From positions 9,172 through 73,171 of the forward strand of contig JAFGTF010000022.1 of NCBI GenBank assembly GCA_016934265.1: a DNA stretch of 64,000 nt, in the 5' to 3' direction. The position numbers and the translations under genes are program-made. The DNA is from Spirochaetota bacterium. GTDB taxonomy: Bacteria; Spirochaetota; B62-G9; DRHN01. Shown piece after piece: positions 3,126-38,629 of this stretch. Each line of letters begins with the position of its first letter. Positions within the stretch are counted from its first letter, which is position 1. The notes beneath the pieces were generated by a model. The model had not been told where the DNA came from, made no database searches, and saw only the letters and a list, made by a program, of their open reading frames with translations.

Positions 3126-3545
3126 CTACTCGATCATCTCCATCGCCATATACGGACAGGACGGTATACAGAGGCCGCAGCCGATACACTTCTCCTCGAC
3201 GAATTCGACCTCCATTCGCTCGCGGTCGGAGATGCTCAATGCCGCGGTAGGACACACGACCGTACACGCGCTGCAGTGGGTGCACCGTTCGTCGATACGC
3301 CTGATGATCTTGGAAACCGGCTTGAAAGATATGCCGAGCTCCCTGAGATAGTCCAAGCCGGCGTCGATGTTCTTTTTTTTACCGGATATTTCGATCACGA
3401 GCGTCCCCTCCTCGTCCTGGTCGATACGCGCCCGTGTAATATTCACCGTGATATCGTACTCCCGGATGAGGTTCGATATGATCGGCTTGTCTGCGAGCTT
3501 CCTCGGGTAATGGAGCATGATGTTGCGTGTCGGGTTCTGTGTCAT
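3126..3545 (-). CDS. NIL-domain 4Fe-4S ferredoxin (COG2122 family; homocysteine biosynthesis partner of DUF39)
   Basis: N-terminal NIL domain, then two CxxCxxCxxxCP clusters ('CTHCSACTVVCP', 'CIGCGLCIPSCP'). The start overlaps the stop of the upstream DUF39 gene (ATGA). Confidence 0.8.
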   Translation of the reverse strand: MTQNPTRNIMLHYPRKLADKPIISNLIREYDITVNITRARIDQDEEGTLVIEISGKKKNIDAGLDYLRELGISFKPVSKIIRRIDERCTHCSACTVVCPTAALSISDRERMEVEFVEEKCIGCGLCIPSCPYMAMEMIE

Positions 3546-20231: not shown

Positions 20232-21116
20232 TCAGCGGCCGCACAGTTCCCTGAAATTGCAGTTTCTGCATATTTCTGTGTTGTCCGTCATAACAAAAAA
20301 CTTTTTCTCTTTTGGATTATTTTCCTCCACGTCAGCGCAGTATTCGTACATTTCGGCTGTCTCGCGTTTTATCGAGGTAAAAAACGCCTGAATGTCGTGA
20401 TCGTCGAACTCGTACTCCTTCTCCTCGTATTCGGGTTTGAGATACGCGATAATCGGGTTTATTTTTTCAGGTTCGATATTGAAATGATATGAAGCCCAGG
20501 AGGTATATCCAAGAAGTTGTTTTTTGTATTTTTCTTCATGCGGCTTGCCGGTCTTCCAGTCGATGATGTAGGTCCGCTTCTCAACCGGAAAAAGAAAGTC
20601 CACCTTAAAGTAAGCCTTCAGACCGTTTATCCTCGATTCGCCGTATCCGGGCGGATCCAGAATCCAATCCTTCTTCGTCGCTATAGCGCTGCCCCTCAAC
20701 CAGGTCATTCGGTCGCTGTTCAGGAAATTGGCAAGACAGAGCGTCACATCGGCCTCTATCCCGGAAATATCTGTTTGGGGAACGTCTTTATAATATACCT
20801 CTCTGAAGACGTTGGTTTTACAGTACCTCTTTAGATTTCTGATGGTATACTCAAAGAACTTTTTCCTGTTGATCGCCCCTTCATCCTTCAGGAGTCTTCC
20901 GATAAGGGTTTTGATCACCTCATGGGTGATTTCCCCCACCGCCAAAGGGACAGAAACCATCGCTTTGAGGGAATTGATCCTTTCAACGGGGTATTGGTTG
21001 TCGTGTTTTGCATAATACGTGTAGTAGTACCGGCGTTTGCAGATCTGAAACAGGTCATACCTTGAAATGGACCACCCGAGTATGGGGGTATACTCGAACT
21101 TTTTTATCCGGTACAT
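20232..21116 (-). CDS. Cas4-like PD-(D/E)XK nuclease with a C-x2-C-x5-C iron-sulfur motif, in a low-GC islet
   Basis: RecB-nuclease motif 'YIIDWKTGK', 'EYE', C-terminal 'CRNCNFRELC'. Local GC is roughly 40-45 %, against ~60 % in the flanks. Confidence 0.7.
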   Translation of the reverse strand: MYRIKKFEYTPILGWSISRYDLFQICKRRYYYTYYAKHDNQYPVERINSLKAMVSVPLAVGEITHEVIKTLIGRLLKDEGAINRKKFFEYTIRNLKRYCKTNVFREVYYKDVPQTDISGIEADVTLCLANFLNSDRMTWLRGSAIATKKDWILDPPGYGESRINGLKAYFKVDFLFPVEKRTYIIDWKTGKPHEEKYKKQLLGYTSWASYHFNIEPEKINPIIAYLKPEYEEKEYEFDDHDIQAFFTSIKRETAEMYEYCADVEENNPKEKKFFVMTDNTEICRNCNFRELCGR

Positions 21117-21359
21117 GGCAATGATCCATTATGACATGAATTCGAAGCGATGTCTTCTTTTTTCCGGCTGATGTCGCGCGATGTATACGGGAGTGCATAC
21201 TTTGTCTTTATCGTGAAAAATATTACATGTCAACGCCCGGCATCGTAGACCCCCAGACTGCGGTGGATTTTACAGAAAATAAATGATAGAATAGAAACAA
21301 TAATCGAACCGGTGTATCGAGAAAGACCGGTTTCATGGAAGCGCTCGAGGAGCGGGATC

Positions 21360-24300
21360 ATGAAATTAAAATTAAGCCAAAAAATATTGGTACTGTACAT
21401 TGCGACCAGTATCGTGATACTGGGAGCAATTTGGATCTTGCTTTCATCAATCCTGAGAAGAGACACGTTCGAGACGTTGCATACGGAGTTTCAGAACCAG
21501 CTCATGCATATCGATTACGCGTTGACTACCTTATTAGAGAATGTCGAACAGGATCTAGAAACGATCTCCCGAAACGAGGCCGTACGCTCGAGAGACGATG
21601 AGGATTTCACCTTCTTCCTCGATGCGGATGAGAGCACTTTTCACTATGAATACGGGGACCTCGAGAAGCGGATAATAACGATTTTCAACAGTTACAGAAC
21701 CACGCATCCGTATGTGAATTCCGTCTATATGGGTCGGGAGAACGGAAGCTTCGTTCGTTCGCATCCGCGTGCGAGGCCGACCGAGTACGATCCAAGAACG
21801 CGTCCGTGGTACGTCATCGGAAAGGAAAGCCATGGAAGGGCCGTGAGAACGCCGCCGTTCCGATCGGTAACCACACCGGACGTAACCGTAGACTATGTGA
21901 AAGCGCTCATTGATTCCGAAGGACAGTGTTACGGTGTCATCGGGATCGGTATCACTCTCAATGAGTTAACCGAATACCTGTCGAACTTCAACCCCGGTTA
22001 CGGCGGCAGGATGTTTCTGGTGGATGAAAAGGGCACGATACTCGTAAATCGGGGCGCCTTTGAGCGGTTTACCCATATCAAGACGTATAATGAACGGCTA
22101 TACCACGACCTCATGGAGAGGAATGAGGGGTATTCCCTGTTCGAGGAGAATTCGGTGCTTTCGTATGCATTCTTTTATACCTCCCCGGCTCTCGGCTGGA
22201 AGATAGCGGCCGTCATTCCTAAAAAGAATATCGAAAGAGCGGATAATGCGGCGGTGTTCAGAGTCTCCCTTGTCTTGTTTTTGGCTCTCGGTCTGCTCAG
22301 CGGCCTCACGCTTTTCGGGGTCGACCGTTTTATCATAAAGCCTATTACACGGCTCGACGAAGGCGCGGACCTCATTACGCGCTCCGGCAATCTCGATCAC
22401 CGTATCATGCTCGATACCGGCGATGAGATAGGACATCTGGCACGGACCTTCAATGGAATGATCGTCTCGATTAAAAAGGCGGAAAAAGAGCTTAAAAAAC
22501 ACCGTGATCATCTCGAGGAGCTCGTTCAGGAGAGGACCAGCGAGCTGAGCAAGTTGACCCAGGCCGTCGAACAGAGTCCCATATCGGTCATGATAACGGA
22601 TAGAGAGGGGAAAATAGAGTATTTCAATCCGCAGTTCATCGCTGAAAGCGGATATTCATCCTCGGATATTATCGGAAAAAGCCCCGAGCTCTTCGTGTCG
22701 GACGAATACGAGAGGTCCTTTTTCGACGAAGTGTGGGATACAACATCCAAAGGCGCTATATGGAGAGGAGAGGTTCTGAACCGGAGGAAGAACAACGAGG
22801 TATACTGGGCGAGCATGTCGGTATCGCCGATCTACAGCGATGATGAAGAGATCACTCATTTCGTCGCCACATACGAAAACATCACGGAGCGAAAGAGGGC
22901 GCAAAAAGAGCTCATCCTCCACGACAGGTTCATGGAAGGAACGGCGGAGGCGGTGACAGAGCTGATCGTGAACAGGGATGTGGGAACCGCAATGCAGAAT
23001 GCAATCAGGATATTCGGCGAAAAGATCGACGTGGACCGGTCGTATATTTATAAGAACCATACAACCGGCGACGGAAGACACGCGATGAGCCAGATATTCC
23101 AGTGGAGTTCCGATTCCGACACCCAGATTATCGACAACCCCGAGCAGCGGAATATTCCGTATGACGGTACCTTTACACGCTGGTACGATACGTTTTCCAA
23201 TCGGGAGCTCATCTCCGGTAGAATAGGCGAATTCCCGAATACGGAACGGGAGGCGCTTGAATCGAGAAGGGTGGAGTCGATGATCGCAGCGCCGATCTTC
23301 GTACGGGACAGTTTATGGGGATTTACCGGTTTCGACAACCTGAAGGAGTCCACAGGCTGGTCGGAAAGCGAGAAGACGATCTTTCTTGCATTCGCCAATA
23401 CTCTCGGTAAGGCGATTACGGGCGCACAGGACGGGATCGAGCTTAAGAAAGCGAAAAAGGCCGCCGAGAAGGCCAATCAGGCCAAGAGCGAGTTTCTCGC
23501 AAACATGAGCCACGAGATACGGACACCGATGAACGCCATCATGGGAATGACCCACCTCGCGCTGCAGACGGAGCTGACGTCGAAGCAGCGGGACTATCTT
23601 TCGAAGATCGATCTTTCGGCGCGTTCTCTTCTCGGGCTTATCAACGACATACTCGATTTTTCCAAGATAGAAGCGGGGAAGATCGAGATCGAGTCGGTGG
23701 ACTTTTATCTCGACGACGTCCTGGACAACCTGACAAGTCTCGTCGAGATGAGAATCGATAAAAAGGATCTCGAGTTCCTCTTCGATATACAGCCCGACGT
23801 TCCCCTGTCCCTCGTCGGCGATCCCCTGCGGCTCGGCCAGGTCCTTTTAAACCTCGCAAGCAACGCAATCAAGTTCACCGAGCGCGGAGAGATTGTGGTT
23901 AAGGTAGCGCTTGTTGAAAAAACGGAAAAAACGGCGACATTGAAATTCTCGGTCAGCGATACAGGCATAGGGCTGAAAGAGGAACAGATGACGATGCTTT
24001 TCAAGCCTTTTTCTCAGGCAGACGGGTCAATCACACGAAAGTACGGGGGCACCGGCCTCGGGCTGACGATATCAAAGCGCCTCGTTCGGATGTTCGACGG
24101 AGAGATAGGGGTCGAAAGCGAATACGGGAAGGGGAGCACGTTTTTCTTTACCGCAAAGTTCGGGCTTCATACAAAGAAGAAACGGCGCAGCGTTCTTTCC
24201 AGGGAGCTTGAGGGTATAAAGGCTCTCGTCGTCGACGATAACAAGACATCTCTGTATGTTTTGAAAGGAACGCTCGAGTCGTTCGGACTCGACGTTTCCC

Positions 24301-25715
24301 TCGCGGAATCCGGTGAAGAAGCGCTCGATGTCATGAGAAACATGCCCCACGAAGAGCCGTTCGATCTTGTGCTCATGGACTGGAATATGCCCGGCATGAA
24401 CGGCGTCGAGGCGTCCATGCTCATCAAACAGGACAGGGGGATTTTTAAAGTTCCCACCATTATCATGGTTACCGCATACGGTCGAGAAGAGGTGCTGCAA
24501 CAGGCGGAAGAAGCGAAGCTCGATCTCTTTTTAACCAAACCGGTAAGCCGGTCTGCGCTTTTCAACCTTATTATGGGGCTGCTCGGCAAAGGGGCTCCTG
24601 AGGCGGTGAGGTCGGTTATTAAAAAGGAGGGTTATATCGAGGCGGTACGGCGGATCAGGGGTGCGAGGATCCTCCTCGCGGAGGACAACGAGATCAATCA
24701 GCAGGTGGCGAAAGAGCTTCTTCAGGGAGTGGGGCTCGAGGTGGCTATCGCACAAAACGGGAACGAGGCGGTCGAGAAAGCGCTGAGCGGCTCGTACGAC
24801 GCGGTGTTGATGGATATCCAGATGCCGGAGATGGACGGGCTCGAGGCAACAAAAAGAATACGATCGAGCGGGAAAAAAGGCGCGGATACGGTACCCATTA
24901 TCGCCATGACCGCCCACGCGATTGAGCAGGACCGTGAAAAGAGCCTCGAGGCGGGAATGAACGATCATATAACGAAACCGATAGATCCGACCGAGTTCTT
25001 CTCTACGCTCGTTCGATGGATTTCTCCCCGGATGATCCGAACAGAAACCTCACCGAAAGAAAAAAAAGCCGCCCCCAAAGAGGAAAACGCGCCGTTTCCC
25101 GTCACCCTGACGGGAATAGACGATCATAAAGGCCTCGCACGGGTCGGGGGCAACGCCGTCGTGTACAAAGACCTCCTTTTGAAGTTTAAAAGGGATTTTT
25201 CCGAAAGCGGACGCAGCATCGAGAATGCAATCGAAGAGGAGGACCTACATACCGCCCGATATTTGGCGCATACGATAAAGGGTGTCGCGGGCAATATCGG
25301 GGCCGAAGGGCTGTATCGTGCCGCATCGACGCTGGATGACGCGCTCAGAGAAAAAAGAGTTGAAAATGGGGACAGAGTGATCGAAAATTATAAGAAAGAA
25401 CTCGATATGGTGGTGCGGTCGATTACTCTTCTCGAATCGACGGGTGACGGGAAGCATCGAGAAGATACGGAATCTAGAGGGAGTGGGAGCCCGAAGATTC
25501 TTCTTGCGATTTTATTGCGACTCGAGCTGCATATCAGAAAAAGCCAGCCGAAAGGGTGCGTGCCGCTCATCGAGGAGATAGAAGCGTTTTTGTGGCCGGA
25601 AGAGTACGTGAAAGATCTACGAAAGCTGGTACGGTATGTTAAAGGGTATAAGTTCGGGGAGGCGCTGGGTGTACTGGAATCGATGAAAGGCAGGCTGGAG
25701 AGGGGGGGCGGATAA
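21360..25715 (+). CDS. hybrid sensor histidine kinase / response regulator (double Cache - HAMP - PAS - GAF - HisKA - HATPase - REC - REC - HPt), 1451 aa
   Basis: TM '[20 protein letters not shown]'; a periplasmic Cache-like region; HAMP; PAS ('[21 protein letters not shown]'); H-box '[17 protein letters not shown]'; G-boxes 'SDTGIGL...[11 protein letters not shown]'; two REC domains ('[12 protein letters not shown]', '[12 protein letters not shown]'); an HPt domain ('[15 protein letters not shown]'). ATG at 21360 with a GAGGAG RBS. Confidence 0.9.
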
Positions 25716-25720
25716 CGGGT

Positions 25721-26821
25721 ATGAAAAAAAAGGCGTCGGTCCTTGTAGTGGATGACAATGAGACCAATATCGACATACTCATGGGAATCCTGGGCGACGA
25801 GTACGAGGTGAGCGTCGCGCTCGACGGAGAACGGGCGCTCGAAGTCGCCGGGGAACAACCGCCTGATATCGTCCTGCTCGACGTCATGATGCCCGGCATG
25901 GACGGCTATGATGTGTGCAGGAGGCTGCAGGAGAAAGAATCCACAAGAAAAATACCGGTGATCTTCGTCACCTCCAGGGGCGAGGTCGAAGACGAGGCAA
26001 TGGGGTTCGAGGCCGGAGGAGTGGACTATATCACCAAGCCGGTGAGCCCGTCTATCGTTCGCGCACGGGTACGAACACATCTCAATCTGAAACGGTACTC
26101 CCAGGAGCTCGAGCATCAGAACGAGGTCTTGAGGGAGAATGCAAGGCTCCAGGAGGAGATCGAGCAGATAAACCGCCACGATTTGAAGAACCCGCTTTCC
26201 GCCATGATATCCATTCCCAGAATGATTATCGAGAGGAACGGGGTAACCGAACGGCAGAAAGACCTCCTGCTGTTGATCGAGGAGGCGGGCTACAGAATGC
26301 TCGATTTGATAAACCGATCTCTCGACATTATAAAGATGGAGCGGGGCATATATCATATAGATCCCGTCCCGGTGAATATGGTGGAGGTGTTCGAGAAGAT
26401 ACTTAGGGAGATCAAGCCGATCACCGACGGCAAGCACATACCGGTCACGCTGTTTCTGCGGGACAAGCCGGTATCAGGCGGCGAATCGTTCCGCATCACC
26501 GGAGAAGAGTTTCTCTTCTATTCCCTGTTTGTGAATCTTTTGAAAAACGCGGTGGAGGCGTCGCCCGACGGTAGGCCCGTAAAGGTATTTTTCGAAGGGG
26601 TGAAACGTCCCGTCGTCAGGGTTACAAACGACGGTGCTATCGCGGAAGAAATTCGAGGGCGTTTTTTCGACAAGTTCTGTACCTACGGCAAGAAAGGCGG
26701 CACCGGTCTCGGCACGTATATCGCGCGGCTGATAACCGAGACCCTCAGCGGCAAAATCGGCTTCGAGACCTCAGAAGAGACGGGTACGACTCTTACGGTA
26801 ACGTTTCCTCCATCCCTCTAA
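25721..26821 (+). CDS. response-regulator receiver fused to a histidine kinase (REC-HisKA-HATPase)
   Basis: REC 'VLVVDDNETNIDIL...VLLDVMMPGMDG'; H-box-like 'RHDLKNPLSAMIS'; ATPase 'GGTGLGTYIARL'. Confidence 0.85.
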   Translation: MKKKASVLVVDDNETNIDILMGILGDEYEVSVALDGERALEVAGEQPPDIVLLDVMMPGMDGYDVCRRLQEKESTRKIPVIFVTSRGEVEDEAMGFEAGGVDYITKPVSPSIVRARVRTHLNLKRYSQELEHQNEVLRENARLQEEIEQINRHDLKNPLSAMISIPRMIIERNGVTERQKDLLLLIEEAGYRMLDLINRSLDIIKMERGIYHIDPVPVNMVEVFEKILREIKPITDGKHIPVTLFLRDKPVSGGESFRITGEEFLFYSLFVNLLKNAVEASPDGRPVKVFFEGVKRPVVRVTNDGAIAEEIRGRFFDKFCTYGKKGGTGLGTYIARLITETLSGKIGFETSEETGTTLTVTFPPSL

Positions 26822-27713: not shown

Positions 27714-27940
27714 GAAAGACCCCCTGTCAGGAGATAGTATTTATCGATACGAAATTATAGTGGCGACCGCGGTAAAACACAAGGGTGAAAATCGGGCGGG
27801 GCAGGATCGATCTTATTGTTCTTGAATATGGACCCGGTTCCTGTTTACTTTGATATTATAAAAGTTTTAAAAAGTGTACGTATGTCCCGTTTATGTGGAA
27901 ATTTGTTGCTTTTTATTTCTCCGCCCCCTACCATTTTGCC

Positions 27941-28327
27941 ATGATGCGTCCGGTGATGATAGCCCTCATCCTCTTCATGTTCGCAGGCGTGTTTCCCCTT
28001 GCGGCTGAAGAGACGGCGTACGACGTGCTCGTGACGGAACCGGATAGGGAGGAATCCGCATTAGCACAGGTTATACGGTTCTACCGGGAGCGCATCTCGT
28101 CACACGACGGAGCGAGGTGCCTCTACTACCCGACCTGTTCCGACTTCTATAGGCAGGCGGCGGCACGGTACGGGTTCTTTTGGGGAACGGTTATGATCGT
28201 CGACCGGATGGTATACAGGGAAGACCCTGCATCCATGAGCCGGTACGAGTACCTGGAAGAGCGGGGAAGCTTCAGCGACCCGGTATACCACAACTACATC
28301 TTCGCACCGTCCGATTACTACGAATGA
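27941..28327 (+). CDS. YidD-like haemolytic-domain protein with an N-terminal signal/TM segment
   Basis: 'VIRFYRERISSHDGARCLYYPTCSDFYRQAAARYG' matches the YidD 'CRFxPTCSxY' core. Start at the MM at 27941. Confidence 0.55.
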   Translation: MMRPVMIALILFMFAGVFPLAAEETAYDVLVTEPDREESALAQVIRFYRERISSHDGARCLYYPTCSDFYRQAAARYGFFWGTVMIVDRMVYREDPASMSRYEYLEERGSFSDPVYHNYIFAPSDYYE

Positions 28328-29256
28328 AAAAGAAGCTCATCATTATAGTATTCATCGCGTTCGCCTCATGCGTATGGCAGGCGGTCGCCCAGGAGGCGAG
28401 CGCGCAGATCAACGACGATGATGATCTCGGGTACGGGATTTACCTCTTCGAGCGCGGCAGGTACGGACTCTCGATACTCGAGCTCGAGCGGTATATATAC
28501 CGTCACCCGCAGGACCGCCATACGCCGCACGCCGGGCTTCTGCTCGCGCTCTCCTACGCGAACGAGTCGAAGTACGACGAGGCGCTCTCACTCCTCGGCG
28601 AGCTCGAGCGGGCGGTTTCAGGAAGCCCGTGGGAGGAGCGCTATTCCGGTATCCTGTGCGAGACGGGGTTTCACCGGCTGAGTCTTCTGTTTCGGCTGAA
28701 AAAACCCTTAGAGTTCGACCTGGAGAAGGAGCGCGTCGCGACGATATGCAGGGAGCCCGATGAACACCTGGGTCGCTATACGGACGCGATGACCGTGGCA
28801 CTCGAGATCTACGATATGCAGTGGCAGCAGGCACTGCGCGAGCTTCAAAACTCTCGCTACCTTTCAGAAGGTCTCACCGAAAAGATTGCGGCGGAGCTCG
28901 AGGAGGCGTTAAAACAGCGGGATAAAAGCCCTGTTCTCGGCGGCATATTTTCCATCGTTCCCGGGATGGGGCACCTGTATGCGGGCAGGGCGTGGGACGG
29001 ATTCAAGAGTCTTTTAGTCAACGCGACCTTCATCACGCTGTCCGTGGTGTGCTTCACGAACGACCTGCCGGTTGCCGGCGGGATATTTACCGGGGTCGAG
29101 GGGGTCCTCTATATCGTGAATATCTACGGCGGCGTGAACGCCGTGCTGCAGGAGAACGCCCGGCAGGCGGTGATTCGGCGCGACCGTATGCTCAAGCTTT
29201 TGCCTGCACCGCCTTTGAAGATCATATCGATTACCGAGGAGTTCGAGATCAGATGA
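28324..29256 (+). CDS. secreted/membrane-anchored TPR-like protein, hypothetical
   Basis: ATG at 28324 overlaps the upstream stop (ATGA). Signal peptide 'MKKKLIIIVFIAFASCVWQAVA', helical repeat region, two C-terminal hydrophobic segments. Confidence 0.5.
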   Translation: MKKKLIIIVFIAFASCVWQAVAQEASAQINDDDDLGYGIYLFERGRYGLSILELERYIYRHPQDRHTPHAGLLLALSYANESKYDEALSLLGELERAVSGSPWEERYSGILCETGFHRLSLLFRLKKPLEFDLEKERVATICREPDEHLGRYTDAMTVALEIYDMQWQQALRELQNSRYLSEGLTEKIAAELEEALKQRDKSPVLGGIFSIVPGMGHLYAGRAWDGFKSLLVNATFITLSVVCFTNDLPVAGGIFTGVEGVLYIVNIYGGVNAVLQENARQAVIRRDRMLKLLPAPPLKIISITEEFEIR

Positions 29257-30209
29257 TCGCCCACGACGTGATCACCTTCCTCTGCGCGAAGGAAACTCTC
29301 CCCGAAGTCAGGCTCGAGATAACCCCGTACCGTTACGGGAAGTGGGACAAAAGCATATACAACCCGAAGGCGAAAATAGAAATGCGCGGGGGAAAGAGGC
29401 CGTCCGTAGCCCATGACGACCCGATGATAGACGAGGACCGCTACTATGCCGATTTCGTCACGTACCACTCCCCGAACGGCAATACGACCGACCTGTACGA
29501 GACGATCGCCCTCTACTCTGCGGAGCCTGACTGGGGAATGGATGAAACGATACGGGTTTCGCCGTTCCAGTTTCTCACCGGCGGGAGCCAGGGGTACCGG
29601 CACCTCCGCTTCGCCCTCTTCGGCATCCGTGCCGGGGCGGCGCACAAAAGGGCGATTCACTTTACGAGGCTCGCCGAACGGGCATTCGACGGAGGCGACA
29701 GGTACTGGGGTGTCAGGTTCAGCGCGTGCGCGATCCACTACATCGAGGACCTTCTCACCCCGCTGCACCAGAAGCCGTGCACCGAAGGCTTCTACCTGAG
29801 GGTACTCCTGGCATGGAAGCGGATGGGCGGGATCTTTACCGTTGGGTTCAATTACCACCACTCCTTCGAGCGGTACACCGGCTACCACCTCTGGCACGGG
29901 ACAAAATGGCTCATCGACGCGATACGGCGGGCGAAACGGATCGATATTGGACCCTTGGAGAAAGATCTGAAAGTCTTCTGGAAGAGGGCGAAGAGGCTTA
30001 CCTGCCGGGTCTTCAGGGAGTGGAGGGGATTCTTGAAGGGGAAGATGGAGCACGGTATAAACCTTCTCGGTCCGGAGGAAGTGGCGGTCCTGGATCCGCC
30101 GGACAGCCTGAAGCGCCTTATCGAAGAGTGGCTCGATCTCGCAGCCGGACTGGTAAAAGGGTATCTCGATCGGTTCGTCGCCCCCCGCCTCGAGGAGGGC
30201 CGCCCGTGA
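29253..30209 (+). CDS. zinc-dependent phospholipase C / P1-nuclease family-like protein
   Basis: ATG at 29253 overlaps the upstream stop. 'AIHYIEDLLTPLHQ' and His/Asp-rich helices typical of the Zn-PLC family. Confidence 0.5.
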   Translation: MIAHDVITFLCAKETLPEVRLEITPYRYGKWDKSIYNPKAKIEMRGGKRPSVAHDDPMIDEDRYYADFVTYHSPNGNTTDLYETIALYSAEPDWGMDETIRVSPFQFLTGGSQGYRHLRFALFGIRAGAAHKRAIHFTRLAERAFDGGDRYWGVRFSACAIHYIEDLLTPLHQKPCTEGFYLRVLLAWKRMGGIFTVGFNYHHSFERYTGYHLWHGTKWLIDAIRRAKRIDIGPLEKDLKVFWKRAKRLTCRVFREWRGFLKGKMEHGINLLGPEEVAVLDPPDSLKRLIEEWLDLAAGLVKGYLDRFVAPRLEEGRP

Positions 30210-32866
30210 AACTTGTCCGCCTCGACTTTACTCGCGATCCGTCCCGGTTCGCTGCGGTGTATATTAAGAAAAATAAGCTTCACCCGCAAAGGACGCTCGT
30301 AATCACGCCGACGGAGCGTTTTAAGGCATATATGGCCCGAGCCCTTCTTGATACATACGGTACCGAAGACGCAATATCCCCCGCTATGATGAAGATAGGC
30401 GACCTCTCACAGGTCCTCGCCGGGTATGAGGGGCGGGAGCTCGCGAACGAAATGCAGAAGCTCAACCTCCTGTACAACGCCTGCGGGAGAACCGGCGGGT
30501 TCGAAGAGCTGTTCGGAAAAGACGTTTTTTCCGGATTCTCCTCGTTTCAGCGACTCGCACGGGGCCTGCTCGGCGCGTTCGAAGAGATCAACCGGATGGA
30601 GGCGGACCTCGGCGGGGGGGTAAGTGCCGAGTACTATGAAGGCTTCGTACGTCACTTCGAAATATTCCGCCGGATTTATGAAAGCTATAGGACGGTTCAG
30701 CAGGAGCGCGGGCTCTTCGATACCGGTTTTCTCCTCGAAAAGGTGAAAGAGAGGAATATTAGAGATTTTTTTTCCGTGTACGACGACGTGGTATTCATCT
30801 CACCGCTCCTTCTCACCGCTTTCGAGCGCCGGGTCTTCCGCCTTGTGGAGGACAAGCTGCACGTCATCTACCAGGACACGGACGAATATGACTTTTCGGA
30901 CCTCTTGACCTACCGTGGCCCGGACACGGACGAATATGACTTTTCGGACCTCTTGACCTACCGTGGCCAGGACACGGAGCATGATCCCTATAAAAGCAGG
31001 CCCGCGAACGGGTCGGAAACCCCGGGAAGGCTCGTTCTCCACGAAACGTCCACCAGGATCGAGACCGTCATGCTCGTTTTATCGCTCATCGAAAAGGAGC
31101 GCGACAGGGGCGTAGAGCCGCACGAAATCGCGGTGCTCAACATAGATCCTGAGGTGTGCGAGATGGTCCTTCGGTCGTGCGGGAAGCTCGGGATACCGGC
31201 GAACTACACGCGAGGCGTTGCAGTGAGAAAGGCGCCGGTCTTTGTGTTTCTCAGGCTCGTCGGCGATTTCTTCGACTCGGGTATGGACTCGGCAGTTTTA
31301 ACCCAGCTCGTACGGTCCGAGTTCTTCTGCGAGCTTTCGGGACTGAGGGATTGGAAAAAGCTGCACGAGCGGATCATAAAAGGGAGGGTCTTCTCCACAA
31401 GACCTCTTGCCGACGGCCTTCTCGATGAGAAGAGCAGTGAGGTCCTCGCTCGCCTTCGGGACCTGTACACGGCGAAGGGTTTCGATACGCTGTATAAAAG
31501 GCTTCTGTCCCTCTTCGAAACGCTCGGAGGGAAGCGGCCGTTCGAGTTCTACACCGTCAGGGACATGCTTCTCGAGTGCGTGCTGCAGCTAGACGAGCTT
31601 GCGGTGGCGCTACCGGAATCGTGTTTCGACATCTTCCTGCAGTACGCGGCAAGCAGGAGGTATACCCTGAAAGGGGCCGTCGGGGAAGGGGTTCAGATCG
31701 TCGGCCTGCTCGAAACGAGAGGGGTTTCCTTCAGGACCGTCATCGTGCCGACCTTCAACGAGGGGTATTTCCCTACGGCCCCCGACTTCGACATGGTCTT
31801 CTCCTCAGACCTGAAAAAAGCGCTCGGGCTTTTGACACGGTCCGACCGGGAGAAGCTCGAGTTCTACTATCTGAAACGGCTTTTAGATGCATCGGAGCGC
31901 GCACACCTCATACCGATACGGGATTCGGTCGGGGAGTTCGAAATACCGAGCAGGTACTGCCACATCCTGAGCACCGAAAAGGGCGGGGGGGTTCCCCACA
32001 CGCTCCCCGTCCCGAAAAGGGCTTTTTCGGCGGGACCTGCTTCCGACGGGCCCCCGCGGCTTACGACGAGGCCGGGCAGCTACAGCAGACTCGACATCCA
32101 CCGACTGAAGCGGTGCGAGACGCAGTACTACATTGCGAAGACGCTGAAAATCGAGGGAGAGAAGGTCCTTTCGAAAAAGATCGAGATGGACTTCGTGGGA
32201 CTTTTGGTGCACAAGTTCCTCAGGGACCTGTACGGCGGTCTCGACTTCGAAAATCTCCCCGAAAGAGAAGAATTCGAGCGATCGATAGTTCAGCGATTTA
32301 ACGCGGAATTCACGGACGGCCTCTTCGGCACGCGCGAGGAGGTCTTCGCAAGAAGGATACTGCTCGAAAACCTGAAAGATTCCCTCATGAAAGACTACGA
32401 GCGGTTTCGGGAGGGAACCGCCGTGTGCGGTGACCTGCTCGAGCGCGACTTTACGGCCACCGTCGGCGGCTTCAATCTCACGGGAAGGATAGACAGGATC
32501 GACCGCTCTATTGACGGGGGGTATACGATTCTCGACTACAAGACCGGGAGAGTGCCCGATAAAAAGGACCATATGCCCGAGAAAGACTACATGGAGGCGC
32601 AGCTCGGATTCTACGGGCTTTTGTTCTTGAAAACCTTTCCCGACCGCCGCATGGGCGGCCTCGGCTACTACGACCTCTCCAAAAATAAAGACGTCGTGAT
32701 TCTCGTGAAGGGGGAGGAGGCGAAGGCGTACGTCGACGGTTTCGAAACGCACCTCGTGGGGTTTTTAGAGCGGTTCGAGAAGAAAGAGGGGCTTTCTCTT
32801 GCAGCGGATATGGCCTGTTGCACGTACTGCCCCTACTATACGATATGCAGGGTATACGACGCATGA
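30206..32866 (+). CDS. addB: AddB-like helicase-nuclease subunit (inactivated helicase region plus C-terminal RecB-type nuclease with an Fe-S motif)
   Basis: GTG at 30206 behind a GAGGAGGGC RBS (GTGA overlap). C-terminal 'ILDYKTGR' nuclease motif and 'CCTYCPYYTIC' cysteine cluster. It lies immediately upstream of, and is coupled to, the UvrD-type AddA. Confidence 0.7.
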   Translation: MKLVRLDFTRDPSRFAAVYIKKNKLHPQRTLVITPTERFKAYMARALLDTYGTEDAISPAMMKIGDLSQVLAGYEGRELANEMQKLNLLYNACGRTGGFEELFGKDVFSGFSSFQRLARGLLGAFEEINRMEADLGGGVSAEYYEGFVRHFEIFRRIYESYRTVQQERGLFDTGFLLEKVKERNIRDFFSVYDDVVFISPLLLTAFERRVFRLVEDKLHVIYQDTDEYDFSDLLTYRGPDTDEYDFSDLLTYRGQDTEHDPYKSRPANGSETPGRLVLHETSTRIETVMLVLSLIEKERDRGVEPHEIAVLNIDPEVCEMVLRSCGKLGIPANYTRGVAVRKAPVFVFLRLVGDFFDSGMDSAVLTQLVRSEFFCELSGLRDWKKLHERIIKGRVFSTRPLADGLLDEKSSEVLARLRDLYTAKGFDTLYKRLLSLFETLGGKRPFEFYTVRDMLLECVLQLDELAVALPESCFDIFLQYAASRRYTLKGAVGEGVQIVGLLETRGVSFRTVIVPTFNEGYFPTAPDFDMVFSSDLKKALGLLTRSDREKLEFYYLKRLLDASERAHLIPIRDSVGEFEIPSRYCHILSTEKGGGVPHTLPVPKRAFSAGPASDGPPRLTTRPGSYSRLDIHRLKRCETQYYIAKTLKIEGEKVLSKKIEMDFVGLLVHKFLRDLYGGLDFENLPEREEFERSIVQRFNAEFTDGLFGTREEVFARRILLENLKDSLMKDYERFREGTAVCGDLLERDFTATVGGFNLTGRIDRIDRSIDGGYTILDYKTGRVPDKKDHMPEKDYMEAQLGFYGLLFLKTFPDRRMGGLGYYDLSKNKDVVILVKGEEAKAYVDGFETHLVGFLERFEKKEGLSLAADMACCTYCPYYTICRVYDA
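30874..30969 (+). repeat. 48-bp in-frame tandem duplication inside addB (two full copies plus a diverged third)
   Basis: 'GGACACGGACGAATATGACTTTTCGGACCTCTTGACCTACCGTGGCC(C/A)' at 30874-30921 and 30922-30969 encodes DTDEYDFSDLLTYRGP/Q twice. A third copy begins at 30970 and diverges. Confidence 0.85.
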
Positions 32867-35800
32867 GCGACGGATACGAGCGAGACGACATGATTTCAGA
32901 AGGACCGGATCCACTGTCGGTGTATAATCCGGAAGAATCGTTCGCGCTTTCGGCGTCCGCAGGATCCGGCAAGACCTTCGCCCTTACCACGAGGCTCTTG
33001 GCCATGCTTTTGTCCGGGCGGTCGTGCGGCGAGATCCTCGCCATTACCTTCACCAACCTCGCGGCGAACGAGATACGAGACGGCCTTTTCAAACGCCTCG
33101 ACGCGCTGGAGAACGGAAGTCCCGAGGAGACCGCCATCTACACCGGGCTTTTGAAAACGGACGGGGAAACGCTCAAACGCAGGGCGAGAAAGCTGCGCTA
33201 CGATCTCGTCGGACAGTTCGGCTTTCTTCGCGTCTCGACCATTCACAGCTTTCTCGGCAGGATGATATTTGCCTTCCCGAAAGAGACGGGGTACATGCTC
33301 GACCTTTCGATCATCGACGAACGGGAGAAGGAAAAACTGCTGTCCGAGTCCCTCGAGGATTTCTACCGCCTGATAGCGGCCGATAGCCACCTCTTCGACC
33401 GCATCCTCGACTTCATACGGGTCTACCGGGAGGGAAGGGCGAAGACGGAAGCCGTGCTCCTCGACATCCACGCGAAAATCGCGGCGAAACGCTACGTTCT
33501 CGGGGAGATGGTGGGGGGGGAGGCGAAGCGAAGCGCAGGCGTTGTTTACGAATATGCCGCGTGCAAGAAGAAACTGTGGTCTCGGGAGACCATGCAGCGC
33601 GTGCGGCTTCTCGCGGAGGCCGCAGTCTCCCATATGGAGGGGCACGGGGAGAACAAAAACCTCGGCTCCTTCGTGCGGGACCTCGATGAATTCCTCGAAA
33701 AAAGAAACCCGAAGGCCCTCTATAAAATGCCGGCATTCAGGCGGGCGGAACAGGAAGGGCCCATCAGATACCTCAAGCCGTTTTTCGACGGCACGGAAAA
33801 AGAGGATCCTCCGGCTTTCCGGAAGGCCTTCGAAGCGGTGAGGGAGGATATCCGAAGATACGTCGCGTCCGAGATGGAATACTACATCGATACCTGGTTC
33901 GAGATCTTCCGGCGCGTGCAGCTGTTCTACGAAGAGAGGAAGAAAAAGAGGCATGTCATCGATTTCGACGATATCGAGCTTGTCTCGCTCCGCCTTCTTC
34001 AGGCCCTCTCGGATTACGGGTATCTGGACTTCAGGCTCGACTCCAGGATACGCTACGTCCTTATCGACGAGTTCCAGGATACATCCGAATCGCAGTGGGA
34101 GGTCCTGAAAGAGGTCGTGCGCAGGGCGCTTCTTGAGGGCGGAAATATTTTCTACGTCGGGGACGTCAAGCAGTCCATATACCGGTTCAGGGGAGGGGAG
34201 CCGTGGCTGTTCGGGGAGGTGAGAAAAACCCTCGGCATCCCGGAGAGAAGTCTCGAGTACAACTTCAGGCAGAACGGGCTTTTACTCGGGACGGTGAACG
34301 GCGTCTTCGAAAGAATATCGAAGGAGGTCTTCTCGGAATACGGCTATAAAACACAGCTTCTTCCGCCGGGACGAAGAGAACGCGACCGGGGGTTTCTTTC
34401 GGTAAAACGGTACGAAAAAAAAGAGGCGCTTTTCGACGGGCTCGTCGATACCGTACGCGGGCTCGAGAAACAGGGCGTGTCATTGAGCGACATCGCGGTC
34501 TTATGCCGGAGAAATTCGGAGGCGGAAGAGGTCGAGTCGCTGTTATTTTCACACCGCATTCCGTACAGGACGTCCGGAAGGAGTCCGCTTCTTTTGGACC
34601 CCGCCGTCTTGGACGTCGTGAATCTGTTGAAGCTCTGTGTGCGGCCCGACGAGCCGGTGCTGTTCTGTGGCTTCCTCCGGTCCCGTATGGCGGGTTTTTC
34701 ATATGAAAAGCTCGGGCATATCGGTGTCATGGGAAAAGACGGCCTGAAAAGGTACGACCCGAGCCTCGATAAAAAGTTGGGCGGGATCATCGAAGGATCG
34801 CGCTATTTGCTTCCGTCCGAGGTCGTGTGGCGCATCTACGACGAGCTCTGCGCCCTTGATGCGTATCCTCACCACCGGGAAGCCCTCTTGGATCTTTTGG
34901 AAACGGCGGTGAGCTTCGAGAACGGGAGGGAGATACCGACGCTCGAGCGTTTCTTAGGCTGGCTCGAAGAGAGCGGGCTGAACCTCCCCATAAAATCCGG
35001 GGCTGGACGGGGGATCGTCGTCCAGACGATACACAAGGCCAAGGGGCTCGAATACCACACCGTCATACTGCCGTATCTTTCCAAGCCTTTCAGGTTCAGG
35101 CTCGACAACTCTCTTTTGTATACCCGGAATGAAAAGGGAAAGGTGGATGCGGTGGGGATTGCCGGCTCTACATACGCCGCGTACCTCGGCATGGAGGGAA
35201 TGATCAGGCAAAACGATTTGGAGTACAGGATCGACGAGCTCAACGGGTTGTATGTCGCGCTCACCAGGGCGCGCGAGAACCTCGTCGTACTCCCGCTTCT
35301 TGCACGCGGTGAGACGATCGGGGATGTCTTCCTTACTGCATTCGATCCGGGGTATAAGAAAGAGGGGGGGGTGTACGGGAAAACGCTGGGGAGGGTCGTA
35401 CCGAGCACGGAAAAAGCCGAGCACACCGAGCGGTCATACGAAAAGCGGCCGTTTGAAGCAGGGACCGGGAAGCACGAGCTCGTGTCTGACGAGCCGTATG
35501 CGGTCGCGGCCGACCTGCGGAAGAGGAGGGCGGGTCTCTTGAAGGGCCTTCTCTTCCATAAGGCGATCGAGATGTCGAAAACGCTTCCCTCTGCGGACGA
35601 GATCGAAAGGCTCGTCGACCGGGCGATGGCGCTCGTCGGCATCCCCTATACGAAGCGTGAGCGCATGACGGCGGAAGCGGGTGCGAAGCGAGCCCTGTTC
35701 AACACCGTCGACGATAAGAGGCTCGCCCGCTACTTTTCCGATGAGGCCGCTTCCGAAATAGAGACGCTTTCTTCGAAGTATAAAAACCTTCTTGGAAGGG

Positions 35801-36033
35801 TAGACAGGGCGTATATCGGTGATATAATATCGATCATCGACTTCAAGACGGACGAGCCGAAAGAAGGCGGCGACTTAGGCGAGCTTGTTAGAGTATATAG
35901 GGGACAGGTTTCCTCGTACTGCAGGGCGTTCGAGAATATCTTTTCAAAACGGCCGGTGGAGGGGTGGCTGTATTTCACCGAGGCTCCCCTGAAAGAACGG
36001 CTTGTCAAGGTATACGAAAAGGAGGAACCATGA
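32863..36033 (+). CDS. addA: AddA-like UvrD/Rep superfamily-1 helicase with a C-terminal nuclease
   Basis: Walker A 'ASAGSGKTFALT'; helicase motifs 'DEFQDTS', 'VGDVKQSIYRFRGG', 'TIHKAKGLE'; C-terminal 'IIDFKTDEP' nuclease motif. Confidence 0.8.
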   Translation: MSDGYERDDMISEGPDPLSVYNPEESFALSASAGSGKTFALTTRLLAMLLSGRSCGEILAITFTNLAANEIRDGLFKRLDALENGSPEETAIYTGLLKTDGETLKRRARKLRYDLVGQFGFLRVSTIHSFLGRMIFAFPKETGYMLDLSIIDEREKEKLLSESLEDFYRLIAADSHLFDRILDFIRVYREGRAKTEAVLLDIHAKIAAKRYVLGEMVGGEAKRSAGVVYEYAACKKKLWSRETMQRVRLLAEAAVSHMEGHGENKNLGSFVRDLDEFLEKRNPKALYKMPAFRRAEQEGPIRYLKPFFDGTEKEDPPAFRKAFEAVREDIRRYVASEMEYYIDTWFEIFRRVQLFYEERKKKRHVIDFDDIELVSLRLLQALSDYGYLDFRLDSRIRYVLIDEFQDTSESQWEVLKEVVRRALLEGGNIFYVGDVKQSIYRFRGGEPWLFGEVRKTLGIPERSLEYNFRQNGLLLGTVNGVFERISKEVFSEYGYKTQLLPPGRRERDRGFLSVKRYEKKEALFDGLVDTVRGLEKQGVSLSDIAVLCRRNSEAEEVESLLFSHRIPYRTSGRSPLLLDPAVLDVVNLLKLCVRPDEPVLFCGFLRSRMAGFSYEKLGHIGVMGKDGLKRYDPSLDKKLGGIIEGSRYLLPSEVVWRIYDELCALDAYPHHREALLDLLETAVSFENGREIPTLERFLGWLEESGLNLPIKSGAGRGIVVQTIHKAKGLEYHTVILPYLSKPFRFRLDNSLLYTRNEKGKVDAVGIAGSTYAAYLGMEGMIRQNDLEYRIDELNGLYVALTRARENLVVLPLLARGETIGDVFLTAFDPGYKKEGGVYGKTLGRVVPSTEKAEHTERSYEKRPFEAGTGKHELVSDEPYAVAADLRKRRAGLLKGLLFHKAIEMSKTLPSADEIERLVDRAMALVGIPYTKRERMTAEAGAKRALFNTVDDKRLARYFSDEAASEIETLSSKYKNLLGRVDRAYIGDIISIIDFKTDEPKEGGDLGELVRVYRGQVSSYCRAFENIFSKRPVEGWLYFTEAPLKERLVKVYEKEEP

Positions 36034-36836
36034 TCGTTTCCGTGATACAGTTCGAAACGAAAGGCAAAGAGGTCGTCTTGGACAGGGGCCTCGAGCTTAT
36101 AGAAAAGGCCTTGAAGGGGAAACCGGATCTCATCGTGCTTCAGGAGCTTTTCAACACCCTGTATTTCCCCCAGTACGAGAACAAGGAATTTTTCGGCCTC
36201 GCGGAAGAGATACCCGGCGTCACGACGGAGAAGATCGCCGAAAAGGTCAAAGGAAGCGGAACTACGGTCGTGGCGCCGATCTTCGAGAAGAGCAAGGACC
36301 GCTACTTCTGCTCCGCTGCGGTGGTCGATCCGGAGCGGGGAGTGGTCGGGACCTACCGCAAGCTGCACGTGCCGACGATTCCGGATATCCACGAGCCGTA
36401 CTACTTTCACAAAGGCGACCGCGGCCACCAGGTTTTCGACGTTGCGGGGGTCCGCATCGCCGTGATGCTCTGCTACGACCGCCATTTCCCGGAGAGTGCG
36501 AGGCTCTACGGCCTCAAGGAGGTTGATCTCCTCTGCGTCAGCTCTGCAACGCCGAAAAAAGCGGCGGGTCCCTGGTACTTCGAGATGCAGGCGCACGCGT
36601 TCTCGAACTGCTTCGCAGTCGCCTGCGCGAACAGATCGGGAACGGAAGACGGGGCAGAGTTTTTGGGATCGAGCTTCATTGCGGACCACAAGGGCGGGAT
36701 CGTCGCAAAATGCAGGGACTCGGGAGACTGCGTCATCACCGCGGATATCAACATAGAAGCGATCAGGGAGACGAAAAAGAAGCTCGCGTTCTACCGGGAC
36801 CGGCGGCCCGATCTCTACCGGGAGCTCGGCAGATAA
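36030..36836 (+). CDS. carbon-nitrogen hydrolase (nitrilase superfamily; N-carbamoylputrescine-amidase-like)
   Basis: Catalytic-triad context: 'VLQELF' (Glu), 'YRKLH' (Lys), 'GVRIAVMLCYDRHFPE' (Cys). The start overlaps the addA stop (ATGA). Confidence 0.8.
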   Translation: MIVSVIQFETKGKEVVLDRGLELIEKALKGKPDLIVLQELFNTLYFPQYENKEFFGLAEEIPGVTTEKIAEKVKGSGTTVVAPIFEKSKDRYFCSAAVVDPERGVVGTYRKLHVPTIPDIHEPYYFHKGDRGHQVFDVAGVRIAVMLCYDRHFPESARLYGLKEVDLLCVSSATPKKAAGPWYFEMQAHAFSNCFAVACANRSGTEDGAEFLGSSFIADHKGGIVAKCRDSGDCVITADINIEAIRETKKKLAFYRDRRPDLYRELGR

Positions 36837-37143
36837 CGCGAAGGATCCACCGTTAATTACCCTGAGCACGGTCGTTTTCAGGCGTATATGTATCCGCTTA
36901 ATCGTATGCCCCGGACCGTGTGCAGGGTGTTCTATAATCATAAATAATACTCCCCCTTGATTGGTACGGAATCGATGTACCGGCCCAAATAAAGCGGCGA
37001 TCCGGCCTTGTTTCATCTTTAGACGGAAAATTTGATTTAACAGGTCGTCGGACTTATTATCATACGGATGTTGCGTAATCCACCGGATATTTTTTTATCC
37101 GCCGGATATCTTTTCATCCGCCCCCTTGATAAAGGGAAGGAGT

Positions 37144-37746
37144 ATGAAACGTTTCTTATTACTTTTATTACTGCCTTTCTTCCTTCTTACGCGAGGAGAG
37201 CTAAAGGCCCATCCCCACGTCTTTTTAGACACGAGGGTCACGGTGGTGCTCGACTCGGAGGGCGTTACGGGTTTCTGGATCGAGTGGGAGTTCGACGAGA
37301 TGTTCAGCGCGATGATAATCCAGGACTTCGACGAAGATTATGATTTCTCCTTCAGCCCCGCCGAGATAGCGAACATCGAAAAGAACGCGTTCTCCAATTT
37401 GAAGAATTTTCACTATTTCACCTATGTCTCCTGGAAGGGTGGGGAGTATACGGGAAAAAAAATTCGAGACTTCTCCGCCTCCATCAGGGGTGATACGCTG
37501 GTGTACCGGTTTTTCGTACCGTGCAGGATCGGTATCGACGATACCGGGATGGTTATAAAGGTCTGGATCTACGACGACAGCTACTACTGCGACGTCGGGT
37601 TCGCCGAGGAAGAACCGGCTGCCTTCGAGGGTGAGAAAGGGTACGGTATTGAAGCGGTAATCGCAAGGGATGAACGCATAACCTACTACTTCGGGCAGGT
37701 TTCCCCGCAGGTGCTTCGGCTCTCGGTCAGGAGAAACGATGGATAG
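37144..37746 (+). CDS. DUF1007 family periplasmic protein (partner of NicO-type nickel/cobalt transporters)
   Basis: Signal peptide 'MKRFLLLLLLPFFLLTRGELKAHPHVF' and a DUF1007-like body. ATG at 37144 behind an AAGGGAAGGAG RBS. The 3' end overlaps the next gene. Confidence 0.55.
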   Translation: MKRFLLLLLLPFFLLTRGELKAHPHVFLDTRVTVVLDSEGVTGFWIEWEFDEMFSAMIIQDFDEDYDFSFSPAEIANIEKNAFSNLKNFHYFTYVSWKGGEYTGKKIRDFSASIRGDTLVYRFFVPCRIGIDDTGMVIKVWIYDDSYYCDVGFAEEEPAAFEGEKGYGIEAVIARDERITYYFGQVSPQVLRLSVRRNDG

Positions 37747-38629
37747 AAGGCGCCTTATCATTCTGCCGGTTTTTATCGTGCTGCTTTTGTGCGTCGCCGC
37801 CGCGGCGCTCGGCGACAACCCTTTTATGGGCGGAACGGCGGTCGAGAAATCGAAACGGGGGCTGAACTACCCCCTGTTCGTGAAACGGTTCATGCGGAAG
37901 ATCGGCCTGCTGCAGCGGAATCTGAACGAGCGGATGACCTCGCTCGGTAAAGAGATCAAGACAAAAGAGAACCCGCGTGCGGCCTTCATGCTGTTTGCGC
38001 TCGTGTTCGCGTACGGGGTCGTTCACGCGCTCGGTCCGGGGCACGGGAAGACGGTTTCCGGTTCCTATTTCCTTACCAGGCGGGCGACCGTGAAAAACGG
38101 AATAATCCTGGGGTCCGTCATTGCGCTGATACACGCCGTGTCGGCCGTGTCCGTGGTCCTCGTTCTCTACTTCATATTGAAGAAGGGCATCGGCGTGTCG
38201 ATGGAGCACTATTCGAGGGTCGTGAAGATCATAAGCGCGGGTGCGATCGTGCTAATCGGCCTCTTCCTCTTCGCGCGGAGGATACTGAAAAAGGTACCGT
38301 CCGAACGAGAGAGCCTCCCCCGCGACAGAAGCATACTTTTAATCGCCCTCGCAGTCGGAATCGTGCCCTGTCCCGGCGCGGTGCTCATACTGCTTTTTTC
38401 GATGAGCATGGATATCATAGGGTACGGCGTGTTGCTCGCCTTCGTGATGTCGCTCGGCATGGCCCTTACCATTTCGGTGACCTGCTGTGCGGTCATTACC
38501 GCGAAAAAGGGGATATTCGGTTCGGGTGAGGAGAGAGGAGTGAGGCGCACCGCTCTTTTTTCCGTTGAAATCACAGGCGCCGTTATCGTGGTTCTGTTCG
38601 GCACCTTTCTTCTGGCCGGCGCGGTATGA
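37739..38629 (+). CDS. nickel/cobalt transporter, NicO/RcnA-like family
   Basis: Signature 'HALGPGHGK' and a His-containing loop, with a 6-TM topology. Confidence 0.75.
   Translation: MDRRRLIILPVFIVLLLCVAAAALGDNPFMGGTAVEKSKRGLNYPLFVKRFMRKIGLLQRNLNERMTSLGKEIKTKENPRAAFMLFALVFAYGVVHALGPGHGKTVSGSYFLTRRATVKNGIILGSVIALIHAVSAVSVVLVLYFILKKGIGVSMEHYSRVVKIISAGAIVLIGLFLFARRILKKVPSERESLPRDRSILLIALAVGIVPCPGAVLILLFSMSMDIIGYGVLLAFVMSLGMALTISVTCCAVITAKKGIFGSGEERGVRRTALFSVEITGAVIVVLFGTFLLAGAV

Follow-up and report, generated by a model that had tools for sequence, protein, structure and literature searches.

A probable six-gene operon of separable modules, with divergent AddB and AddA genes behind envelope-type and phospholipase-C-fold genes, in an uncultured Spirochaetota lineage

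Within a 64,000-nucleotide stretch of DNA from a Spirochaetota bacterium (GTDB lineage B62-G9; DRHN01; assembly GCA_016934265.1, contig JAFGTF010000022.1, forward-strand positions 9,172 to 73,171; the whole stretch is referred to here as the window), six consecutive open reading frames (ORFs) occupy the + strand from 27.9 to 36.8 kb, and each of the five junctions between them is an in-frame 4-bp overlap of stop and start codons (ATGA at 28324, 29253, 32863 and 36030, and GTGA at 30206). In the order of transcription these genes, termed g1 to g6 (Table 1), encode a YidD-like protein and a TPR/TM2-like membrane protein, both with N-termini that suggest export, a protein with the fold shared by phospholipase C (PLC) and P1 nuclease, an AddB-like and an AddA-like protein, and a C-N hydrolase. 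We favor, and consider likely, the reading that they form a polycistronic operon of separable modules that is conserved in an uncultured Spirochaetota lineage, and in which the overlaps are ordinary compaction. An initial annotation of this DNA had spoken of seven genes joined by such overlaps: rereading the ORFs recovered its five overlap coordinates exactly and gave a count of six genes and five junctions, and its functional labels for all six products were borne out by domain, fold and motif evidence. Because the same in-frame ATGA or GTGA overlap occurs at only 4 of the roughly 30 other same-strand neighbor pairs in the window (at 3545, 8226, 10495 and 39751), five in succession make this an unusually compact operon, built with a type of overlap that is itself common in this genome. 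The start codons chosen for g3, g4 and g6 are supported, because residue 1 of each projects onto a start codon in nearly all related loci when the relatives are aligned; g1 has an alternative ATG at 27893, which gives the longer form deposited at NCBI.

Evidence that the cluster behaves as a unit comes from its relatives, which were collected by a pattern scan with one genome per species; the best 80 of 143 g3 relatives were kept, and the window proteins were searched against all ORFs of these 80 loci. The genes g1-g2-g3-addB-addA occur in the same order and on the same strand in 15 of 17 distinct Spirochaetota genome loci (the 17 include L009 and L013, in which contig ends leave addA and g1, respectively, out of view), where the encoded proteins share 30-67% identity with those of the window. 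The exceptions are the complete genome CP070841.1 and locus L023, in which no g1 was detected. The cluster is also present on about 20 additional metagenome contigs, in several of which a contig edge truncates it; those that are long enough keep the order, except four (L094-L097). The flanks are less constant: an Rce1-like gene and two histidine kinase genes stand upstream in the window, and a cNMP-binding gene and an acetyltransferase gene in most relatives. Because gene order is conserved at deep divergence, selection has evidently kept the block together as a unit, for which an operon is the simplest account, and the idea of a unit put forward in the initial annotation is upheld by the comparison of gene order in relatives that it had itself proposed.

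The operon is also modular, its parts being separable: In CP070841.1, g1-g2-g3 is followed by unrelated genes, with no AddAB after g3. Two metagenome contigs (L096, 1419-9627, and L097, 4856-7039) carry g1-g2-addB-addA without g3, with addB beginning about 70 nucleotides after g2, and two others (L094 and L095) have g1-g2 with no g3 match in the remaining ~670 nucleotides. About 60 g3 homologues in other phyla stand without g1, g2 or AddAB. The last gene, g6, is facultative, following addA in 8 of approximately 16 Spirochaetota genome loci.

The junctions are not equally conserved. That between addB and addA is an in-frame ATGA in 15 of the 16 loci that have it, despite a shift of 8-14 residues in the protein boundary, and g1/g2 is joined by ATGA in 11 of 15 loci; g2/g3 is a 4- or 1-nucleotide overlap in most loci, and the spacing across relatives runs from -20 to +246 nucleotides at g3/g4 and from -4 to +122 nucleotides at g5/g6. 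Shine-Dalgarno-like motifs precede the genes at the frequencies given in Table 1; the matches before g5 stem mostly from conserved Cys-Arg codons at the AddB C-terminus, and g6 is preceded by a strong motif, AAGGAGG. The combination expected of translational coupling, a conserved overlapping stop/start with mostly no Shine-Dalgarno motif of its own for the downstream gene, is found at g1/g2 and at addB/addA, where the overlaps most likely give coupling by termination and reinitiation. Obligate co-translation of the whole cluster, which the initial annotation had read from the overlaps, is an overstatement, because g3 and g6, which mostly have their own Shine-Dalgarno motif, and g4, which has one in about half of the loci, can start translation independently. 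The variable spacing at g3/g4 and g5/g6, and a sigma-70-like site with 11 of 12 consensus positions that lies about 200 nucleotides before g6, also speak against it.

In the reading that we favor, the operon would comprise four modules: an envelope pair (g1 and g2) that is also present in other phyla; g3, presumably cytoplasmic, with the three-zinc phosphodiesterase fold of the PLC/P1 nuclease type; AddB-AddA, a helicase-nuclease that would process double-strand breaks; and the optional C-N hydrolase g6. The 4-bp overlaps would then represent routine operon compaction and not fusion. Coupling from g1 to g2 and from addB to addA would keep the amounts of the two partner proteins balanced, g3 and g6 would use their own ribosome-binding sites, as would g4 in about half of the loci, and the modules would be co-regulated with no shared substrate required.

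Several observations weigh against this reading, or at least against its stronger forms. Gene order kept at ~35-40% identity usually signals functional or physical coupling, such that "independent modules" may understate the link, and g1-g2 still adjoins addBA in the two contigs where g3 has been lost (L096 and L097). Synteny also extends beyond the operon: 9 loci have a transketolase gene downstream of it and 14 have the cNMP-binding gene upstream, which weakens the case for functional coupling from conserved order as well. No consensus promoter was found in the 227-nucleotide region upstream of g1, for which the consensus may not be that of the host. With no promoter match before g1 and a strong promoter-like site inside addA, the transcription units and co-transcription of the genes are putative. 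Finally, the export of g1 and g2 was called from N-termini read by eye, with no signal-peptide predictor.

The promoter-like site, TAGACA-16-TATAAT with an upstream TG, is the best match of the region and the sole strong internal one, and it lies inside the 3' end of addA, where, as a match to consensus alone, it may be a candidate internal promoter for g6. The same sigma-70-like scan returned 8 sites, against 4.6 +/- 2.0 expected in shuffles, with a consensus that may not suit this spirochaete. A scan for + strand terminators after g6 returned none that was convincing, and no RNA element was matched when the entire window was scanned against Rfam at gathering thresholds.

Table 1. Genes of the proposed operon and the promoter-like site within it; the last column gives the number of loci in which a Shine-Dalgarno-like motif precedes the gene.
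Feature	Coordinates	Strand	Description	Length (aa)	Matches or basis	Shine-Dalgarno-like motif
g1	27941..28327	+	Predicted exported YidD-like protein	128 (144 if start = 27893)	PF01809, TIGR00278	
g2	28324..29256	+	TPR/TM2-like membrane protein	310		4/15 loci
g3	29253..30209	+	PLC/P1-nuclease-fold protein, without signal peptide	318		14/16 loci
g4 (addB)	30206..32866	+	AddB-like nuclease subunit	886	PF12705, 2e-26	9/16 loci
g5 (addA)	32863..36033	+	AddA-like SF1 helicase-nuclease	1056	UvrD-helicase, UvrD_C, UvrD_C_2	6/16 loci
g6	36030..36836	+	Nitrilase-superfamily (C-N hydrolase) amidase	268	PF00795, 5e-49	7/8 loci
Sigma-70-like match	35801..35828	+	TAGACA-16-TATAAT with upstream TG; candidate internal promoter		Consensus scan, 11/12 positions; best of region	

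The third gene of the operon is the founder of an uncharacterized family for which neither Pfam nor NCBIfam has a model. The window protein itself gave no NCBIfam match and no Pfam match at E<=1; it does not reach the gathering threshold of PF00882 (Zn-dependent phospholipase C), a model matched by one of 43 family members (E = 0.0012). A profile built from the family matches PC-PLC by sequence (E=5e-4), and the fold is all-alpha and superposable on both PC-PLC and S1/P1 nucleases, so that the zinc-PLC/P1-nuclease label given in the initial annotation was correct on both family profile and fold comparison. The profile alignment places H162, D166 and H172 of g3 on the PC-PLC zinc ligands H118, D122 and H128, and, by spacing and pattern alone and with published PLC numbering, H4, D97, H117, H202 and E206 would be the counterparts of PLC H14, D55, H69, H142 and E146. 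All eight are among the conserved residues of the family, together with E91, D93 and W94, and the ligand-type residues are kept in ~74-80 of 85 homologues from many phyla; the chemistry of g3 is presumably zinc-based. Because no signal peptide is seen on reading its N-terminus, g3 is presumably cytoplasmic. The family numbers 552 clusters at 50% identity among 1.84 billion representatives, and its members in Atribacterota, Sericytochromatia, Thermotogota, Desulfobacterota, Acidobacteriota and other phyla occur without g1, g2 or AddAB.

Given this fold, g3 might not be a phospholipase at all and might instead be an intracellular S1/P1-like nucleic-acid phosphodiesterase that serves DNA repair together with AddAB. 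We consider this unlikely, albeit the least unlikely of the alternatives. The missing signal peptide would agree with it, as would part of the company kept by g3 homologues: the DNA-related genes of their putative operons in other phyla encode a UDG-family glycosylase (6 loci), a spore-photoproduct-lyase-like radical SAM enzyme (5 loci), PC4-like single-stranded-DNA-binding proteins (3 loci), RNase_H_2 domains (2 loci) and, directly or closely downstream in two loci (L082 and L071), a UvrD+PD-(D/E)XK helicase-nuclease. However, many other neighbors are not concerned with DNA (Ldh_2 in 9 loci, SRP54, RodZ-like proteins, GreA, and ABC and ZIP transporters), and each type of neighbor comes from a single clade, which leaves few independent observations. 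The neighborhoods outside Spirochaetota are thus clade-specific and mixed (Ldh_2; a block of ZIP, ABC and UDG genes; the radical SAM enzyme; SRP54; RodZ-like; GreA), and no common partner that would name the function of g3 was found in them. Moreover, the final metal ligand is a Glu in an H-x3-E motif as in PLC, the operon persists without g3, and both fold and sequence place g3 closer to the phospholipases C.

Two arrangements around g3 homologues are worth recording in their own right. A tight same-strand run of genes for a ZIP zinc transporter, the g3 homologue, an ABC ATPase and a UDG-family glycosylase recurs in one unclassified clade (L028, L032, L034, L035 and L040), and a zinc importer beside a putative three-zinc enzyme is suggestive. 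In Acidobacteriota, the gene for a single-chain UvrD+PD-(D/E)XK helicase-nuclease comes directly after the g3 homologue at L082 (378-4737), and one gene separates the two at L071 (9701-14860); this is a second, independent adjacency of g3 and a helicase-nuclease outside Spirochaetota.

The next two genes encode what is, judged from profiles and motifs, a divergent AddB/AddA pair, whose members are relatives and not equivalogs of the known proteins. In g4, the PF12705 match spans residues 630-882 and marks a C-terminal PD-(D/E)XK nuclease with a DYK at residue 777, and the protein ends in an iron-sulfur-type cysteine cluster, CCxxCxxxxxC (Cys 871, 872, 875 and 881). Direct reading of its motifs gave no Walker A, its match to the AddB model TIGR02786 is partial (71 vs a cut-off of 487), and a sequence search of AddB against the PDB returned no match; the addB gene lies directly upstream of addA in every related locus that carries addA. 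In g5, matches to PF00580, PF13361 and PF13538 accompany a Walker A motif, GSGKT, at residues 34-38, and the PDB proteins matched by sequence include Rep, PcrA, AddA and RecB. Toward the C-terminus, GRVDR...IIDFKT (~residue 993) reads by eye as a RecB-type motif, a Pfam PDDEXK_1 match being reported for the L001 orthologue and not for the window protein. The best NCBIfam match of g5 is to the epsilonproteobacterial "RecB-like helicase" NF010485, over the full length and with 299 bits vs a cut-off of 650, and addA_alphas scores 238 vs 861; because these scores fall far under the NCBIfam cut-offs, we regard g5 as a divergent relative and not an equivalog. At 30871..30966 (+), addB contains an in-frame 48-nucleotide tandem duplication with one mismatch that repeats a conserved peptide, (Q/P)DTDEYDFSDLLTYRG; the peptide DTDEYDFSDLLTYRG is single-copy in six related AddB proteins, and the duplication is either a very recent event or an assembly artefact.

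The product of g6 is a clear member of its superfamily (167 bits to PF00795 vs a cut-off of 23), with E39, K111 and C148 in the expected triad motifs as read by eye. Among NCBIfam models it comes closest to aguB (N-carbamoylputrescine amidase), with 187 bits vs a cut-off of 410, and it is not an AguB equivalog.

At the other end of the operon, g1 scores above the curated YidD cut-offs of both PF01809 (51.3 bits vs 27) and TIGR00278 (57.4 bits vs 40), and its NCBI product name is YidD. The domain occupies residues 40-91, and the match is limited to profile positions 3-54 of 67 (Pfam) and 4-54 of 64 (TIGRFAM): g1 does not cover the full-length YidD domain, the C-terminal part of both models being unmatched. 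That part is presumably the canonical C-terminal half with R-C-x-P...GG-x-D-P-V-P, and the tail of g1 has a conserved motif of its own, VDR..E.D...(F/Y)SDPV. Read by eye, the N-terminus is signal-peptide-like, with hydrophobic residues 1-25 followed by AAE|E. Its neighbor g2 has a signal peptide, a TPR domain at about residues 45-197 and, at the C-terminus, a hairpin of two helices similar to a TM2 domain; an invariant motif, KSPxxGGxxSxxPGxGHxYAGR, follows the TPR region and precedes the long hairpin. The structure model is all-helical (pLDDT 90.6). No Pfam family matches g2 itself, half of its relatives match TPR families, the JGI annotation is "TM2 domain YozV", and there is no equivalog match, the NCBIfam models for YbgF and BamD scoring just 17-19 bits. 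From these N-termini, both g1 and g2 would be exported.

The g1 subfamily adjoins g2-like genes in other phyla as well. Among distant g2 homologues (23-31% identity, from Syntrophales and many unclassified metagenome contigs), 34 of 57 loci have a g1-type YidD gene directly before the g2 homologue, whose product shares the signal peptide of g1 and its tail, GFFxG..VDR..E.D..FSDPV, and none of these 34 loci contains g3 or AddAB genes. Type II secretion genes (for the GspD secretin, the GspE ATPase, GspF and GspG) lie within ~4.5 kb in 20 of the 57, frequently as gspD-gspE-(yidD-like)-TPR on one strand or with gspF/gspG divergent. The g1-type/g2 pair is thus possibly an uncharacterized pair associated with type II secretion or with envelope biogenesis. 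Loci with this pair are found in metagenome contigs L112-L168, for example L116 (3635-8840), L153, L156 and L157.

Together with the conserved gene order, this pairing bears on whether the envelope pair and g3 might cooperate with AddAB as one functional system, for example in membrane-associated processing of incoming or broken DNA, in DNA uptake or in defense against foreign linear DNA, or with g3 as an S1/P1-like end-cleaning nuclease for AddAB. Type II secretion is a trans-envelope machinery related to DNA-uptake pili, and its genes beside the g1-g2 pair elsewhere would suit such a system, as would a five-gene order that persists to 30-45% identity while the flanks change and a g1-g2 pair that stays joined to addBA where g3 is missing. 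On the other hand, neither the window nor the Spirochaetota loci showed type II secretion genes close to the operon, CP070841.1 keeps g1-g2-g3 without an adjacent AddAB, and in other phyla both g1-g2 and g3 are unlinked to AddAB. The compartments also differ, g1 and g2 being predicted to be exported and AddAB and g3, all without signal peptides, being presumably cytoplasmic. A search of the accessible literature found no support, and nothing relevant on the g1-g2 pairing, on AddAB with phospholipase C, on YidD paralogues or a link of YidD to type II secretion, or on cytoplasmic Zn-PLC/P1 proteins. The composite repair/envelope-stress unit suggested in the initial annotation is made less likely by the modular behavior of its parts, and we give a functional composite only a slim chance.

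An origin of the cluster by horizontal acquisition, or as the domesticated mobile cassette that was the other suggestion of the initial annotation, is highly improbable: its mixed functional content, tight packing and G+C of 0.57-0.585 (a little higher than in the 20-28 kb just upstream) might suggest as much, but this G+C falls inside the window range of 0.46-0.60, no integrase or transposase gene is adjacent, and deeply diverged members all across the lineage have the operon, with flanks that are partly conserved, a distribution such as vertical inheritance would give. The window also has no tRNA genes and no compositional island, and the only direct or inverted repeats flanking the operon are short matches at chance level; the mobile-element reading was accordingly rejected.

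The genes around the operon include others of note. Downstream (37126-38629, +) lies a DUF1007 gene that shares 8 nucleotides with a gene for a NicO-family nickel/cobalt transporter; the 289-nucleotide intergenic region before them has no Rfam match, and the pair is an insertion that parts the operon from the transketolase genes next to it in relatives. Immediately upstream, a large phosphorelay (21312-26821, +) begins with a 1467-residue hybrid sensor kinase (dCache, HAMP, PAS, GAF, HisKA, HATPase, two receiver domains and Hpt), followed after 5 nucleotides by the gene for a receiver-HisKA-HATPase protein, and the divergent Rce1-like CAAX protease gene stands between this phosphorelay and the operon. 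A stand-alone gene for a 294-residue PD-(D/E)XK (PF12705) protein, a second RecB/Cas4-like nuclease of this neighborhood, lies 7 kb upstream of the operon (20232-21116, -), beside a HAD hydrolase gene.

What is new here is modest: a lineage-specific operon context, the uncharacterized PLC-fold family of g3, and a cross-phylum pair of putatively exported YidD-like and TPR-TM2 proteins. AddAB itself is a divergent member of a known family, and the cluster, taken alone, is an ordinary compact operon of separable modules. The conserved context of AddAB hints at co-regulation of envelope genes and double-strand-break repair; the g3 family combines a PLC/P1 nuclease fold and an intact-looking metal site with the lack of a signal peptide, and is spread over many phyla; and a second, presumably periplasmic, flavor of YidD with a fixed partner offers a useful handle on a protein whose function is poorly understood.

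Escherichia coli YidD is a membrane protein insertion efficiency factor (Yu et al., 2011, J Bacteriol 193:5242, as cited in PMC6822775), and PMC6822775 mentions YidD solely as a protein of unknown function. Like members of the YidD family (PF01809), g1 has the N-terminal half of the domain, including the I-S-x6-C-x3-P-T-C-S-x-Y motif; it differs from the usual form, a small cytoplasmic protein of the rnpA-yidD-yidC context, in its added signal-peptide-like segment and its own conserved tail, and in standing not beside rnpA or yidC but beside the gene for a TPR/TM2-like membrane protein. No yidC, rnpA or second yidD was found in the 64-kb window, nor a second yidD in the Spirochaetota loci, in searches for which the E. 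coli YidD query sequence was approximate. Like the membrane-anchored periplasmic TPR proteins YbgF/CpoB, YfgM, BamD and LpoP, g2 is presumed to be periplasmic, and with TM2-domain proteins (COG2314, YozV) it shares a helical hairpin that comes after a Gly-rich PGxGHxYAG motif; in the literature searched, no description was found of a TPR domain and a hairpin joined in one protein next to a YidD-like gene.

Compared with zinc-dependent phospholipases C (Bacillus cereus PC-PLC, 1AH7; Listeria monocytogenes PlcB, 8CQM; the N-domain of clostridial alpha-toxin; PF00882) and S1/P1 nucleases (PF02265), g3 has pattern equivalents for 8 of the 9 zinc ligands. It departs from the phospholipases in lacking a signal peptide, a propeptide and the N-terminal Trp1 ligand, in a non-helical insertion of ~55 residues (23-78), in its own motifs EPDWGMD and GGSQGYRH, in an additional C-terminal helical region, and in scoring under the Pfam thresholds. 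The AddB-AddA pair is comparable to AddAB of Bacillus subtilis (PDB 3U44/4CEH), to AddA of Helicobacter pylori and other epsilonproteobacteria and to alphaproteobacterial AddB: the order is addB then addA, the window AddA contains a UvrD-type motor of SF1 that includes a Walker A and, as read by eye, a candidate RecB-type nuclease motif near its C-terminus, and the window AddB has a C-terminal PD-(D/E)XK nuclease with a terminal cysteine cluster. It differs from these systems in that both proteins are very divergent, in that its AddB has no Walker A and carries a private 16-residue tandem duplication, and in that the pair, in this lineage, sits behind three non-repair genes.

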